Of a stretch of 64,000 nt of DNA, positions 3,516-31,152 are shown one piece after another. The translations under genes and the position numbers were made by a program. Position 1 is the stretch's first letter, and every line of letters begins with the position of its first letter. Under the pieces are notes generated by a model. That model was not told the DNA's origin and made no database searches. It was given only the letters and a program-made list of their open reading frames with translations. The stretch is from Escherichia coli (GTDB taxonomy: Bacteria > Pseudomonadota > Gammaproteobacteria > Enterobacterales > Enterobacteriaceae): assembly GCF_017348835.2 (NCBI RefSeq), contig NZ_CP071375.1. The stretch is one strand, 5' to 3'.

Positions 3516-5549
3516 ATGACTCAAGTCGCGAAGAAAATTCTGGTGACGTGCGCACTGCCGTACGCTAACGGCTCAATCCACCTCGGCCATATGCTGGAGC
3601 ACATCCAGGCTGATGTCTGGGTCCGTTACCAGCGAATGCGCGGCCACGAGGTCAACTTCATCTGCGCCGACGATGCCCACGGTACACCAATCATGCTGAA
3701 AGCTCAGCAGCTTGGTATCACCCCGGAGCAGATGATTGGCGAAATGAGTCAGGAGCATCAGACTGATTTCGCAGGCTTTAACATCAGCTATGACAACTAT
3801 CACTCGACGCACAGCGAAGAGAACCGCCAGTTGTCAGAACTTATCTACTCTCGCCTGAAAGAAAACGGTTTTATTAAAAACCGCACCATCTCTCAGCTGT
3901 ACGATCCGGAAAAAGGCATGTTCCTGCCGGACCGTTTTGTGAAAGGCACCTGCCCGAAATGTAAATCCCCGGATCAATACGGCGATAACTGCGAAGTCTG
4001 CGGTGCGACCTACAGCCCGACTGAACTGATCGAGCCGAAATCGGTGGTTTCTGGCGCCACCCCGGTAATGCGTGATTCTGAACACTTCTTCTTTGATCTG
4101 CCCTCTTTCAGCGAAATGCTGCAGGCATGGACCCGCAGCGGTGCGTTGCAGGAGCAGGTGGCAAATAAAATGCAGGAGTGGTTTGAATCTGGCCTGCAAC
4201 AGTGGGATATCTCCCGCGATGCCCCTTATTTCGGTTTTGAAATTCCGAACGCGCCGGGCAAATATTTCTACGTCTGGCTGGACGCACCGATTGGCTATAT
4301 GGGTTCTTTCAAGAATCTGTGCGATAAGCGCGGCGACAGCGTAAGCTTCGATGAATACTGGAAGAAAGACTCCACCGCCGAGCTGTACCACTTCATCGGT
4401 AAAGATATTGTTTACTTCCACAGCCTGTTCTGGCCTGCAATGCTGGAAGGCAGCAACTTCCGCAAGCCGACCAACCTGTTTGTTCATGGCTATGTGACGG
4501 TGAACGGCGCGAAGATGTCTAAGTCTCGCGGTACCTTTATTAAAGCCAGCACCTGGCTGAATCATTTTGACGCCGACAGCCTGCGTTACTACTACACTGC
4601 GAAACTCTCTTCGCGCATTGATGATATCGATCTCAACCTGGAAGATTTCGTTCAGCGCGTGAATGCCGATATCGTTAATAAAGTGGTTAACCTGGCCTCT
4701 CGTAATGCGGGCTTTATCAACAAGCGTTTTGACGGTGTGCTGGCAAGCGAACTGGCTGACCCGCAGTTGTACAAAACCTTCACTGATGCCGCTGAAGTGA
4801 TTGGTGAAGCGTGGGAAAGCCGCGAATTTGGTAAAGCAGTGCGCGAAATCATGGCGCTGGCTGACCTGGCTAACCGATATGTCGATGAACAGGCTCCGTG
4901 GGTGGTGGCGAAACAGGAAGGCCGCGATGCCGACCTGCAGGCAATTTGCTCAATGGGCATCAACCTGTTCCGCGTGCTGATGACTTACCTGAAACCGGTA
5001 CTGCCGAAACTGACCGAGCGTGCAGAAGCATTCCTCAATACAGAACTGACCTGGAATGGTATCCAGCAACCGCTGCTGGGCCACAAAGTGAATCCGTTCA
5101 AGGCGCTATATAACCGCATCGATATGAAGCAGGTTGAAGCACTGGTGGAAGCGTCTAAAGAAGAAGTGAAAGCAGCTGCCGCGCCAGTTACTGGCCCACT
5201 GGCAGATGATCCGATTCAGGAAACCATCACCTTTGACGACTTCGCCAAAGTTGACCTGCGCGTGGCGCTGATTGAAAACGCAGAGTTTGTTGAAGGTTCT
5301 GACAAACTGCTACGCCTGACGCTGGATCTCGGCGGCGAAAAGCGTAATGTCTTCTCCGGCATTCGTTCTGCTTACCCGGATCCGCAGGCACTGATCGGGC
5401 GTCACACCATTATGGTGGCCAACCTGGCGCCACGTAAAATGCGCTTTGGTATCTCCGAAGGCATGGTAATGGCTGCTGGTCCTGGCGGGAAAGATATTTT
5501 CCTGTTAAGCCCGGATGCTGGTGCTAAACCAGGCCATCAGGTGAAATAA
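3516..5549 (+). CDS. metG: Methionyl-tRNA synthetase
   Basis: Class I aaRS motifs HLGH ([11 protein letters not shown]) and KMSKS (GAKMSKSRG); zinc knuckle [18 protein letters not shown]; start taken at [12 protein letters not shown] inside ORF 3507..5549. Confidence 0.95.
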
Positions 5550-25557: not shown

Positions 25558-27239
25558 GCCTCGTCCCTCCATGGTAGTCGTAACGTTATTCGGGTGTAAC
25601 TATCAGGCTCACAGGCGACGCTTATCCCATAGTCATCGCCAAACCGTTCACGTAAACGCTTATCCACCAGATTCATACCCAGCCCACTGGCATTGGTTAC
25701 CGGTTGATACAAACCGGCATTGTCTTCGATCTCCAGCATCAAATGTTGCCCCTCACGTCGGGCGCTGATTGCCACTCGCCCTGTATCCAGCAGTTGTGAT
25801 GTCCCATGTTTAATGGCGTTTTCCACTATCGGTTGCAGGGTAAACGCGGGCAATTGCTGCTGGGATAATTCTTGCGGAATAGCAATGTTGACCTGCAACC
25901 GCGACTGGAAGCGCGCCTTTTCAATTTGCAGATAAGCGTTCACATGTTCAATTTCGTCGGCGAGAGTAACAAACTCCGAAGGCCGCTTTAAGTTTTTGCG
26001 GAAAAAAGTGGAAAGATACTGCACCAGCTGGCTGGCCTGTTCGCTGTCGCGACGGATCACAGCTTTAATGGTGTTAAGCGCATTAAACAAAAAATGGGGG
26101 TTCACCTGGGCGTGAAGCAGTTTGATCTCTGACTGGGTGAGCATCGCTTTTTGCCGCTCATATTGCCCGGCGAGGATCTGCGCCGAAAGCAGTTGCGCAA
26201 TCCCCTCGCCCAGCGTGCGGTTGATTGAACTGAATAAACGGTTTTTGGCTTCATACAATTTGATGGTGCCCATCACCCGCTGATTTTCACCACGCAACGG
26301 AATTACCAGCGTCGACCCCAGTTTGCATTGCGGATGCAAAGAGCAACGATAAGGTACTTCGTTGCCATCAGCGTAGACCACTTCACCGGTTTCAATCGCT
26401 TTTAAAGTATAAGTTGAAGAAATCGGTTTGCCGGGTAAATGGTGGTCGTCACCAATTCCGGTAAAGGCCAGCAATTTCTCTCGATCGGTAATCGCGACTG
26501 CACCAATATCCAGCTCCTGATACAGCACCTGAGCCACTTTCATGCTGTTCACTTCGTTAAACCCCTGTCGCAAAATGCCTTCCGTCGAGGCTGCCACTTT
26601 CAGCGCAGTGGCAGAAAAAGCCGAAGTGTATTTTTCAAACATCGCGCGTTTATCGAGCAATATACGCATAAACAGCGCCGCGCCGACGGTATTGGTGACC
26701 ATCATTGGCGCAGCAATATTACTCACCAGACGCACCGCATCTTCATAAGGTCGGGCGATCGCCAGGATGATCAGCATTTGCACCATTTCAGCGACGAACG
26801 TGACGGCACCGGCGGTAATGGGGTTAAAGACTTTATCAGTGCGCCCGCGGCGGATCAGGATGCTGTGTACCAGGCCACCGAGCAATCCTTCAACGATGGT
26901 CGAGATCATGCAACTTAACGCGGTCATGCCCCCCATCGAATATCGATGTAACCCGCCGGTCAGACCAACCAGCCCACCGACGACCGGACCGCCGAGTAAG
27001 CCGCCCATTACCGCGCCTATCGCACGGGTATTGGCAATAGAATCGTCAATGTGCAACCCAAACCAGGTGCCCATGATGCAGAAGATGGAAAAGACGATGT
27101 AGCAGAGAAATTTATGCGGCAGACGAACCGTGACCTGCATTAACGGTATGAATAATGGCGTTTTACTCATTAACCACGCAATGACTAAAAAAACGCACAT
27201 CTGCTGAAGCAGCAGCAACACCAGATTAAAATCGTACAT
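25554..27239 (-). CDS. btsS: LytS-type sensor histidine kinase
   Basis: Multi-TM N-terminus, GAF-like middle, H-box [18 protein letters not shown]; start taken at [11 protein letters not shown] inside ORF 25554..27254. Confidence 0.9.
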
Positions 27240-27460
27240 ACCCGCAAACCACACTTCCCTTTAAAACGCGTAACATACATTGCCTGCGTTTAACTTTCTT
27301 TGAACTCTTGCAGAAAAATGAGAATTCGTGAGTACGATCACTCAAAATCGCCTGGCAAAAATAAAATCACCCTATAGATGCACAAAAAACGGGCAAAACT
27401 ACCTGGTTCGCAAAACTGCGTCTAAAGTTAAACCGGGACCTCGCGAGCAAGGGTGAGACG

Positions 27461-28192
27461 ATGGCGCTTTACACAATTGGTGAAGTGGCGTTGCTTTGTG
27501 ATATTAACCCTGTCACGTTACGCGCGTGGCAGAGGCGTTACGGATTGCTGAAACCGCAACGGACAGACGGCGGTCATCGGCTGTTCAACGATGCCGATAT
27601 TGACCGGATCCGCGAGATCAAACGCTGGATCGACAACGGCGTACAGGTCAGCAAAGTTAAAATGCTGCTCAGTAATGAAAATGTTGATGTGCAGAACGGC
27701 TGGCGCGATCAGCAAGAAACATTACTGACTTACTTGCAAAGCGGCAATCTGCATAGCCTGCGAACGTGGATCAAAGAGCGCGGTCAGGATTACCCCGCCC
27801 AGACGCTCACCACGCATTTGTTTATTCCTCTGCGTCGACGGCTTCAGTGCCAACAACCGACTCTCCAGGCGCTGCTGGCGATCCTCGACGGCGTACTGAT
27901 CAACTACATCGCCATTTGTCTGGCTTCGGCACGTAAAAAACAGGGTAAAGATGCGCTGGTGGTTGGCTGGAATATTCAGGATACCACCCGTCTGTGGCTG
28001 GAGGGCTGGATTGCCAGTCAACAAGGATGGCGCATTGATGTCCTCGCCCACTCGCTCAATCAACTACGCCCTGAACTATTCGAAGGCCGTACATTGCTGG
28101 TGTGGTGCGGTGAAAATCGAACCTCCGCCCAACAGCAGCAACTCACCAGTTGGCAAGAACAAGGCCATGATATTTTCCCACTCGGCATTTAA
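27461..28192 (+). CDS. mlrA: MerR-family transcriptional regulator (curli/csgD regulator)
   Basis: N-terminal MerR HTH YTIGEVALLCDINPVTLRAWQRRYGLLKPQRTDGGHRLF; 243 aa. Confidence 0.9.
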   Translation: MALYTIGEVALLCDINPVTLRAWQRRYGLLKPQRTDGGHRLFNDADIDRIREIKRWIDNGVQVSKVKMLLSNENVDVQNGWRDQQETLLTYLQSGNLHSLRTWIKERGQDYPAQTLTTHLFIPLRRRLQCQQPTLQALLAILDGVLINYIAICLASARKKQGKDALVVGWNIQDTTRLWLEGWIASQQGWRIDVLAHSLNQLRPELFEGRTLLVWCGENRTSAQQQQLTSWQEQGHDIFPLGI

Positions 28193-28251
28193 TGATTCGT
28201 TAACAAATGCGCTTTACTGTACAATCCTTTCGTTAACATAAGGAGTGCATT

Positions 28252-28359
28252 ATGCGCATAGCTAAAATTGGGGTCATCGCCCTGTTCCTGTTTATGGCGT
28301 TAGGCGGAATTGGTGGCGTCATGCTCGCAGGTTATACCTTTATTTTGCGTGCTGGCTAA
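28252..28359 (+). CDS. yohO: 35 aa single-helix membrane peptide
   Basis: [38 protein letters not shown] with AGGAG RBS at 28241-28245; 3' end overlaps the convergent yehW stop by 20 nt. Confidence 0.7.
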
Positions 28360-29071
28360 GCGCCTGCACCAGCCTTTCAAACAGGCGGTCTGCGATGATC
28401 GCCGCCAGTGCCACCAGTAACGCCCCCTGGATCACATACGCGGTATTAAATCCGCTAAGCCCGATGATGATGGGCGTACCCAGCGTGCTGGCCCCTACCG
28501 TTGAGGCGATCGTCGCCGTACCAATGTTGATAATCACCGAAGTTCGCACGCCCGCCAGAATCACCGGAGCCGCCAGCGGTAGCTCGACCTTACGCAGTCG
28601 CTGACCACGACTCATTCCCATACCCTTCGCAACTTCTGTCACGCTGGCATCAATCGCTCCCAGCCCGGCAAGTGTCGCCTGCAGGACGGGCAGCACACCG
28701 TACAGGATCAAGGCGATAATCGCCGGTTGCAGGCCAAAGCCGATCACCGGAACGGCAATCGCCAGCACCGCAACGGGCGGAAAAGTCTGCCCAACGGCGG
28801 CAATAGTTTCCACCAGTGGGCGAAATTCCGCGCCCCACGGGCGAGTGACAGCAATTCCGGCACCAGTACCAATGATCACCGCAAACAAACTCGAAATTCC
28901 CACCAGCCAGAAATGAGCCAGTGCCAGAGCTGCAAAACTTTCTTGCTGATAAACGGGTCGTGGCAGTTGTGGGAACAAGGCAGCAAACAGCGGCTGGCTG
29001 TAAGGCAGCCAGAAAATCAGTGCCACAAACAAAGCAATGAGCCAGAACAGCGGATCGCGCAACATCTTCAT
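28340..29071 (-). CDS. yehW: ABC transporter permease (osmoprotectant-type uptake system)
   Basis: 243 aa multi-TM protein in a 4-gene transporter operon. Confidence 0.9.
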
Positions 29072-29075
29072 ACGC

Positions 29076-30002
29076 TTACGCCTCCACCAGCAGATCCCGA
29101 AAATGCAGCGTGCCGCAAGGCTGGCCCTGCGTGTTCACCACCGGCAGCACCTCGCATCCCCGCGCGACAAACAGAGAGAGCGCATCGCGCAGCGTCATCT
29201 CTTCTGCCAGTGCCTCACCTTCTGCCCGTTCTTCGCGACGCACGTAATCCGCCACACTACGTAACGAAAGCAGGCGCACCCCCAGTTCACTACGTCCAAA
29301 AAACTGGCGGACAAAATCATTCGCCGGACGAGTCAGCATCGTCAGCGGATTCCCCTGCTGCACCACTTCACCGTGATCCATCAATACCAGATGTTCTGCC
29401 AGCCGTAGCGCCTCATCAATATCATGAGTGACCAGCACAATAGTGCGCCCCAGCAAACGGTGAATGCGCGTCATCTCTTGTTGCAACGCGCCGCGCGTTA
29501 CCGGGTCCAGTGCGCCAAAAGGTTCATCCATCAGTAAGACTTGCGGATCGGCAGCCAGTGCGCGCGCCACTCCCACACGTTGCTGCTGACCACCGGAAAG
29601 CTGATGCGGATAACGCTCACGCAAATTTGACTCCAGCCCCAGTAGCGCCATTAATTCGTCGATACGATCGTCAATCCTCGCCCGCGACCATTTTTGTAAT
29701 TGCGGCACGGTAGCGATGTTTTGCGCCACGCTCCAGTGGGGGAACAGGCCAATAGATTGAATGGCATAGCCCATTCGGCGGCGCAACTCCAGTACTGGCA
29801 GCGAGCGAATTTCTTCTCCGGCAAAGCGGATCTCTCCGCTGTCATGCTCCACCAGGCGGTTAATCATTTTCAGGGTGGTGGATTTGCCGGAACCAGATGT
29901 GCCAATCAGCACCGAAAAACTCCCTTCCTGAAAATTGAGATTGAGATCGTTAACGGCTTTTTGTGCGCCGAACAGTTTGCTGACATGGCTAAATTCAATC
30001 AT
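29076..30002 (-). CDS. yehX: ABC transporter ATP-binding protein
   Basis: Walker [13 protein letters not shown] signature LSGGQQQRV, Walker [10 protein letters not shown]-terminal CBS-like extension. Confidence 0.9.
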
Positions 30003-31152
30003 TACGTTTCACCTTCAGCAGTGCGATAAGCAAATCGAACAGCGCGTCGGTAAGCACCGCCAGAACAATTACCGGGATCACCCCCAGCAACACTAAATCA
30101 ATGGCGCTGCTTAGCAGCCCCTGGAAAACCAGCGCACCAAAACCGCCTGCGCCGATTAACGCCGCAATCACCGCCATACCTACAGTTTGTACCATCACCA
30201 CCCGCAGGCTGCGCAGAAATACCGGTAACGCCAGTGGTAACTGAACATGCAGGAATCGCTGCGCCCCGCTCATCCCCATCGCTCTGGCGCTTTCCAGCAC
30301 ATCGCGCGGGATCTGGTTCAAACCGACTACCACGCCGCGCACCAGCGGCAGCAAGGCATAGAGCACCAGCGCAATCAGTGCGGGTGTCATTCCGGTTCCT
30401 GCTATGCCGAGCTTCCCCAGCCACGGAAAGGCCGTCACCAGCGCGGCAAGCGGCGCAATCAACAGGCCAAAGAGCGCCACCGAAGGCACGGTCTGAATGA
30501 CATTGAGCAGAGAAAAAATCGCCCCCTGCCGCGCGGTGGAAAAGTAGCACCAGATGCCCAATGGCACACCAATCACTAACGCAGGCAGCACCGCACCAAA
30601 CAGCAACGTCAGATGTTGTGCCAGCGCGTCGTCAAACACATCCTGACGGTTGGCGTATTCTTTCATTAGCGAGAGATCGTTAAGCGTGCCGGAGTAAAGC
30701 AACCACAGCGGAATAATGGCAATCTGCATATGCAACAACCAGCGCCACAGCGGATGCGTGGAGATTCGGCGGATGGCATCGCTACAGGCCAGCAATGCCA
30801 GCGCCGCAGCCAGCCAGAAACCACTGCCGAGGCTGGTACGCGCCAGCGCACTGCCATTTTGCGCCAGTTGGGTCGCCGCCTTTCCAGCTCCCCACACCAG
30901 CAATACGAAGACGAATTGCGCCAGAATGAGTGCAAAAATGCTGCCTTTTTTAGCGGGAATAAAACAGGCTGTCAGCCAGGCGCAACCAACGCCCACCAGC
31001 ATCCAGATCGTTTGCGGCCACAGTTGCCAGAGATGACGCCCTTCACCCGAGACTAAACGATTAGGCGCGTAACTGATAAACGGCAGCGCCGCTGCGATTG
31101 CCGTCAGCAACATCAGCAGCGCCAGAACAGGATTAATACGTAGATAAGTCAC
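29995..31152 (-). CDS. yehY: ABC transporter permease
   Basis: 385 aa multi-TM protein; 8 nt overlap with the yehX start. Confidence 0.9.

Follow-up and report, generated by a model that had tools for sequence, protein, structure and literature searches.

The small membrane protein gene yohO ends within the convergent permease gene yehW of Escherichia coli: an ancient overlap with possible antisense coupling

At one junction of the Escherichia coli chromosome, a gene for a very small membrane protein, yohO, runs tail to tail into the last gene of the yehZYXW osmoprotectant transporter operon, raising the questions of whether the short ORF is a genuine gene and whether the overlap couples the two transcription units through antisense RNA. 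Both questions arose from a sequence-only reading of a 64,000-nt stretch of contig NZ_CP071375.1 (assembly GCF_017348835.2; hereafter the window, to which all coordinates refer unless K-12 positions are given). It proposed a 35-aa membrane peptide with a strong ribosome-binding site, an overlap of its last 20 nt with the oppositely oriented yehW, antisense RNA produced by transcription of either gene and, as a possible outcome, cis-antisense coupling between the peptide and the transporter. The features at the junction are as follows.

27461-28192, plus strand: mlrA, the upstream co-oriented neighbour of yohO in E. coli, with no terminator before yohO.
28240-28245, plus strand: Shine-Dalgarno sequence AAGGAG of yohO, six nt 5' of the ATG, its GGAG kept in 80 of 85 loci.
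28252-28359, plus strand: yohO CDS, 35 aa, ATG to TAA, UPF0387 family, with a single predicted transmembrane helix.
28340-28359, both strands: the 20 nt in which the yohO and yehW CDSs overlap at their 3' ends, with both stop codons counted.
28340-29071, minus strand: yehW, the final gene of the yehZYXW (osmF) operon, which specifies a glycine betaine ABC transporter; its 243-aa product is a permease subunit carrying a BPD_transp_1 domain.
29076-30002, minus strand: yehX, upstream of yehW on the same strand.
29995-31152, minus strand: yehY, likewise upstream of yehW on the same strand.

The ORF, its ribosome-binding site and the extent of the overlap were all as the sequence-only reading had described them, and the yehW stop codon TAA (the complement of 28340-28342) falls within codons F30-I31 of yohO. 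Positions 28190-28420 show no base different from K-12 MG1655, in which RefSeq places yohO (b4542) at 2215657-2215764 and yehW (b2128) at 2215745-2216476, with the same overlap geometry. In the RefSeq annotation of the best-matching strain, btsS, mlrA, yohO, yehW, yehX and yehY follow the order seen in the window, and a 1.7-kb query around yohO-yehW found a match in 5423 of 5426 complete E. coli genomes.

The assignment as a small membrane peptide gene was borne out by family membership. The encoded peptide is identical to YOHO_ECOLI and matched the NCBIfam equivalog NF010225 over its full length (residues 1-35 of 35), scoring 80.1 bits where 57 is the cut-off, while PF27791 is recorded for YohO homologues among precomputed matches. 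YohO displays the features of UPF0387: its length falls within 34-37 aa, it is predicted to form one hydrophobic helix, and it carries the GIGGVMLxGY core typical of the family. Its genomic context is also that of the family, in which yohO is convergent to and overlaps the last permease gene of a yehZYXW-type operon. Modelling in AlphaFold2 on a 22-sequence alignment gave one helix spanning residues 3-34 with a mean pLDDT of 89.6, and the mean hydropathy of residues 6-32 is 2.17. Residues G19, G22, V23, M24, L25, G27 and Y28 are invariant in the alignment and M15, A16, I20 and G21 nearly so, with the N-terminal half of the helix variable. The family has few members: an exhaustive search with HMMER through 1.84 billion representative proteins yielded only 17 clusters at 50% identity, several of which are frameshifted or mis-called variants, and its farthest members are found in Mangrovibacter and Shimwellia.

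An ORF this short could be spurious, with only the yehW 3' region or an mlrA 3' UTR being real, and no match was obtained in an older Pfam release, the family being present only in newer ones. Against this stands purifying selection specific to the yohO frame. Computed on the 28 yohO codons outside the yehW overlap, dN/dS is 0.15 across 79 species loci (pS 0.63, pN 0.18), compared with 0.32-2.8 in the other five frames, and summed entropy across the yohO codons of the 79 species amounts to 35.0 at third positions vs 5.9 at second positions. The product itself has been seen by top-down mass spectrometry in a 2025 proteomics study (PMC12529367), and published Ribo-seq data cover the ORF, providing the ribosome occupancy whose lack would have spoken against the gene. 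Together with the NF010225 and PF27791 matches and the start codon, Shine-Dalgarno sequence and promoter kept across loci, these data refute the spurious ORF, a reading to which we attach next to no probability. We conclude that yohO is a real small gene, transcribed as a unit of its own, and that its product is a 35-aa inner-membrane protein with a single helix.

Conservation of the overlap was analysed in the best 80 YehW-encoding loci, one genome per species. A yohO homologue convergent to and overlapping yehW was present in 79 of the 80, and in 8 further loci. Its length in the 79 loci is 26 nt in 42, 20 nt in 34, 17 nt in two and 14 nt in one, and it is again 20 nt in Mangrovibacter and Shimwellia. 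Every length equals 2 modulo 3, that is, the phase is always the same and the stop codons alone have moved; in the 26-nt class YohO has 37 aa and ends in RGGVG. The 14-nt overlap belongs to a Pantoea locus in which mlrA is 1.8 kb away. The yohO-yehW overlap is ancient.

The upstream neighbour is far less constant. mlrA is absent or distant in loci L035, L048, L057, L076, L081 and L083-L090, and yohO is still fused to yehW in all of them; mlrA is missing and btsS adjoins yohO in four genera. In the first four of these loci (Intestinirhabdus, Klebsiella spallanzanii, an Enterobacteriaceae MAG and Pseudocitrobacter), the immediate upstream neighbour of yohO is a btsS gene (85-89% identity) in divergent orientation. 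The gene upstream of yohO is metG or an ArsR-type regulator gene in Mangrovibacter and a TonB-dependent receptor gene in Shimwellia. mlrA has thus been lost or moved in several lineages in which yohO-yehW is intact, and the constant partner of yohO is yehW rather than mlrA. That the two genes stay adjacent does not by itself speak for a function, since CDSs that overlap cannot be parted without damage to one of the genes.

Two loci differ in other ways. The sole fetched species without yohO is Enterobacterales bacterium CwR94 (L079, positions 3690-3800), in which yehW is followed by a GC hairpin, CGGGGC-CGTA-GCCCCG, with a run of A on one side and of T on the other, beyond which lies a convergent pta; this conventional terminator junction occupies the position of yohO in other species. 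In Citrobacter amalonaticus AUH_CA_2023_1 (locus L007, 3716-3820, 20-nt class), yohO is frameshifted near its 5' end, which may reflect either a pseudogene or an indel error of long-read sequencing.

The transcription unit of yohO begins with a compact promoter, the elements of which are listed below.

28189-28206, minus strand: ArcA box over the yohO -35 region, an inverted repeat TTAATG-N3-CGTTAA that includes the mlrA stop codon.
28220-28225, plus strand: predicted -10 hexamer TACAAT of the yohO promoter (cross-species consensus TATAAT).
28230-28238, minus strand: second copy of the 9-mer TGTTAACGA, at the predicted +1; the first copy is at 28197-28205, inside the ArcA box.

The -10 element matches TATAAT at five or more of six positions in 85 of 85 loci, exactly in 55, and begins 32 nt before the ATG in 62 of the 85, from which a transcription start near 28232 is predicted; no match to an experimental yohO start was found in Cappable-seq supplements. 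The 59-bp spacer between mlrA and yohO is better conserved than much of the CDS. Since the -10 element, the ArcA box and the Shine-Dalgarno sequence are kept also in loci with btsS, metG, an ArsR-type gene or a TonB receptor gene upstream, the promoter belongs to yohO. A ChIP study of ArcA reported a peak named 'yohO' with the minus-strand box ttgttaacgaatcattaa (Park 2013, PMC3798270, Tables S1, S3 and S4), and this box is the reverse complement of window positions 28189-28206, showing that ArcA is bound at the yohO promoter in vivo. At least 13 of the 18 positions of the box are kept in 77 of 85 loci. In the same study yohO is listed among the bound but lowly expressed genes of Table S8, with values of 7.17 and 7.77 (PMC3798270). 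Shigella yohO undergoes FNR-independent anaerobic repression (log2FC -2.96), which is consistent with ArcA control, a regulator to which that repression was not tied there.

Several other motifs were noted around this promoter. The window contains four copies of the 9-mer TGTTAACGA where 0.42 are expected; two of them lie in the yohO promoter, 33 bp (three helical turns) apart, a spacing kept in 50 of 50 loci having both TTAAC cores. The second copy may be an extra ArcA half-site; it is absent from the ArcA repeat elements in Table S4 of the ChIP study (Park, PMC3798270). Directly downstream of mlrA, plus-strand positions 28195-28228 read ATTCGTTAACA-N12-TGTACAATCCT and resemble the MlrA site of csgD, AAAGTTGTACA-N12-TGCACAATTTT, both in spacing and at 13 of 22 positions. 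An MlrA box was nonetheless rejected as the main reading, given that the TGTACA half-site is a lineage-specific variant of the TATAAT -10 element, that the motif persists without mlrA and that the DNA is the published ArcA box; the resemblance is probably coincidence. Inside yohO, 28249-28277 on the minus strand holds a sigma-70-like match, ATGACC-17-CATAAT (9/12), directed antisense to mlrA, and the count of such minus-strand matches is that of chance (one found vs 1.1 expected). A genomic SELEX peak of a minor sigma factor, labelled 'yohO > yehW < yehX', falls within yehW at U00096.2 coordinate 2214150 (PMC5493296).

At the other end of the unit, three features mark where yohO RNA stops.

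28384-28403, plus strand: stem-loop GGCGGUC-UGCGAU-GAUCGCC in the yohO 3' UTR, antisense to yehW and without a U tract.
28408, plus strand: dominant 3' end mapped for RNA of yohO (or of mlrA-yohO), Term-seq K-12 2215813, coordinate mapping verified.
28590, plus strand: Rho termination region antisense to yehW, K-12 2215995, Rho score 5.64 and significance 9.4e-16 in a bicyclomycin experiment (PMC7815308), its coordinate mapping likewise verified.

In published Term-seq data (Adams et al., eLife 2021, PMC7815308), the dominant 3' end of yohO lies at K-12 2215813 (+) and carries two labels, 'primary' with respect to yohO and 'antisense' with respect to yehW. The position is listed three times in the three-condition table, two of the rows giving 861 and 1115 reads, counts that stand near the bottom of the list (PMC7815308). 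In the window it corresponds to 28408, which is 49 nt downstream of the yohO stop codon and five nt beyond the stem-loop, at a depth of 69 nt within the yehW CDS; RNAfold gave -13.5 kcal/mol for 28360-28408, and the stem-loop probably blocks exonucleases. The Rho region at 28590 is ~231 nt past the yohO stop and about 180 nt downstream of 28408, and the RNA over 28360-28600 is C-rich (C:G ratio 1.3). The simplest reading is Rho termination ~230 nt into yehW followed by exonuclease trimming to the stem-loop, which is the typical pattern according to the authors of the mapping (PMC7815308).

Overlapping transcripts do exist, and the proposal that antisense RNA comes from either gene stood on the yohO side, as evidenced by the 3' end at 28408, the Rho region at 28590 and the ExcludonFinder listing described below. 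On the yehW side, no sense 3' end was found in the published 3'-end data consulted.

Intrinsic terminators were scanned for on both strands of the window, giving three weak sites vs 2.9 expected from shuffles, and a small hairpin at 28269-28284 is not kept across species. A strict scan of the 80 loci found none downstream of yohO (0/80) and none at the junction; downstream of yehW it gave sites in 3 of 80 loci, all ~290 nt upstream of the yohO ATG and inside mlrA, with the proviso that the scan would miss the CwR94 hairpin in the yehW direction, where T occupies only three of the first eight post-stem bases. Conserved RNA structure at the overlap or the 3' end was not detected, with four base pairs kept by RNAalifold in the 79-species consensus and no convincing covariation; the folding z-scores around the overlap (-1.9 and -1.75) are unremarkable, and Rfam gave no match at E ≤ 1 over 27000-29500. 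As there is no terminator between mlrA and yohO, read-through from mlrA into yohO is likely, and mlrA is not an obligatory part of the yohO unit. The mlrA ORF itself has, close to its start, a terminator-like hairpin (27465-27487, plus strand) followed by a T-rich tract, and a published Term-seq 'internal' 3' end at K-12 2214904 corresponds to window 27499, 38 nt into mlrA; the segment 27465-27499 may serve premature termination or attenuation of mlrA.

The two units have already been catalogued as an antisense pair. ExcludonFinder places yohO-yehW among 165 convergent excludons found in at least 50% of 58 MG1655 transcriptomes (NAR 2025, PMC12288877), a call that is nearly automatic for pairs with overlapping CDSs such as this one. 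Of the features of a convergent excludon, the pair shows neighbouring genes on opposite strands, facing 3' ends and overlapping transcripts, of which the yohO side is mapped. The cis-antisense idea is thus already in the literature as a catalogue entry, and the yohO gene, its overlap with yehW, the antisense 3' end and the ArcA site have likewise been annotated or published. No reciprocal expression, dsRNA, or RNase III cleavage or dependence was found for yohO-yehW in accessible published data.

How such coupling would operate can be followed from the geometry. Because yohO and yehW lie tail to tail with no intergenic space and no intrinsic terminator, polymerase leaving yohO runs antisense into yehW. 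Rho halts it ~230 nt downstream and the RNA is probably trimmed to the stem-loop, leaving a mature 49-nt yohO 3' UTR and an RNA that can pair with the final 69 nt of the yehW CDS. The antisense run and the Rho stop have been shown by the published 3'-end and Rho mapping, of which the trimming is the simplest reading. In the opposite direction, a polymerase that has passed the yehW stop would reach the yohO start codon after 88 nt and the -10 element after about 115 nt; judged from this geometry, polymerases finishing yehZYXW probably traverse the whole 108-nt yohO and its promoter before Rho could plausibly act. The consequences would be unequal, since yehZYXW transcription would occlude yohO and pair with it, and yohO transcription would damage the yehW 3' end alone. 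Modest and asymmetric negative coupling of the excludon type is in our judgement the most likely consequence of this arrangement, a proposal we would give an even chance. Against it, both transcription units are weakly expressed, so that polymerase collisions and RNA duplexes may be rare.

The alternative ranked close behind is that the arrangement is neutral: genome compaction would have left the overlap as a frozen by-product of the origin of yohO or of stop-codon drift. The low expression of both units would make it tolerable, and their antisense RNA would be noise removed by Rho, without effect on either gene. We consider this a real possibility, if a somewhat smaller one. It agrees with an overlap length that drifts between 14, 17, 20 and 26 nt through stop-codon shifts alone, with the variable C-terminal tails of both proteins and with the low expression; Rho termination of the antisense extension is the usual fate of untranslated read-through, and synteny follows automatically from overlapping CDSs. 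Harder to accommodate under neutrality is that among ~87 loci in several contexts no lineage has separated the genes or gained a terminator, that the sole lineage without yohO has a hairpin terminator at the junction, and that, taken together, excludon pairs are more syntenic than neighbours that are not excludons (ExcludonFinder, PMC12288877). A different source for the tight linkage to yehW would be the function of YohO rather than any RNA effect, with YohO acting as a lineage-specific membrane partner, a regulator or accessory helix, of YehZYXW or another complex. This would be compatible with antisense coupling, and we regard it as unlikely, though worth keeping in view. yohO accompanies yehW, not mlrA, in all contexts examined, and the invariant C-terminal half of its helix, with small residues spaced like helix-packing motifs, argues for a specific intramembrane contact; small membrane proteins of E. 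coli often bind transporters, as do AcrZ, KdpF, MgtS, SgrT and MntS. Accessory subunits, however, are usually co-transcribed with their partners, and co-transcription of yohO with yehZYXW was not found, yohO being convergent and having its own conserved promoter. YehW-type permeases are moreover widespread without YohO, whose family is confined to the 17 clusters, and CwR94 carries yehW without yohO; a PDB sequence search returned no YohO in solved structures, and no interaction data were found.

More specific schemes fare worse. In a redox-to-osmoprotection switch made up of YohO and the terminator-less junction, ArcA-controlled transcription of yohO would tune the amount of intact yehW mRNA in cis, and the YohO helix would bind YehW/YehY; yohO would be active aerobically and off anaerobically, and the transporter would be controlled at both the RNA and the protein level in a manner specific to Enterobacteriaceae. 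Such a switch, which we think rather doubtful, would if true explain why yohO is fused to yehW in all contexts despite a changing upstream neighbour. A type I toxin-antitoxin-like locus, in which YohO would be a small hydrophobic toxin checked by antisense RNA from the yehW 3' end, is suggested by the size and hydrophobicity of the peptide, its strong Shine-Dalgarno sequence and the overlapping antisense transcription. The idea is highly improbable: yohO belongs to the core genome as a single copy and is under purifying selection in every member of the Enterobacteriaceae examined, its product is detectable by mass spectrometry in normal cells, and its ASKA clone grew well enough for picking in a growth-based screen with 0.1 mM IPTG; there is also no dedicated antisense sRNA gene and no Rfam match, the antisense partner being a protein-coding operon.

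As matters stand, the overlap of yohO and yehW is real, ancient and already catalogued, and matters little. The modest additions made here are that a terminator-less overlap has been kept across essentially all yohO-carrying Enterobacteriaceae and that yohO is tied to yehW, not to mlrA. If a link to YehZYXW at the RNA or the protein level were true, it would provide the first function for a long-orphan small membrane protein of E. coli and a clean minimal model of a convergent gene junction without a terminator.

Overlapping 3' UTRs and RNase III are reportedly a subject of work in the Lasa laboratory. Convergent excludons (a concept from Listeria; E. coli excludome, PMC12288877) share with yohO-yehW the opposite-strand neighbours, the overlapping transcripts and the short, here negative, intergenic distance. 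Classic excludons, in contrast, are marked by a long antisense UTR and by reciprocal expression that has been demonstrated, whereas the mature antisense stretch of yohO-yehW is only 69 nt and, unlike in those cases, the CDSs themselves overlap. Small inner-membrane modulators are known from pairs such as AcrZ-AcrB, KdpF-KdpABC, MgtS-MgtA, SgrT-PtsG, MntS-MntP and CydX-CydAB. YohO resembles them in having fewer than 50 aa, a single transmembrane helix, a detected product and linkage to a transporter operon, but differs in being convergent to the linked operon and not co-transcribed with it.

mRNA 3' ends that are Rho-terminated and exonuclease-trimmed were reportedly treated by Dar and Sorek in 2018. 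The yohO RNA is similar to the Rho-terminated, trimmed ends mapped by Adams et al. (2021) in that its 3' end is at the foot of a stem-loop lacking a U tract, with a bicyclomycin-sensitive region downstream. It differs from such ends solely in that its whole 3' UTR is inside the CDS of the neighbouring gene. Type I toxin-antitoxin loci with a 3'-overlapping antisense RNA include txpA/RatA and bsrG/SR4 of B. subtilis. yohO is like them a gene for a small hydrophobic peptide with a convergent overlapping transcript, but unlike them it is core, single-copy and constitutively detectable in its product, with no dedicated antitoxin sRNA and with an overexpression clone that was recovered in a growth-based screen.
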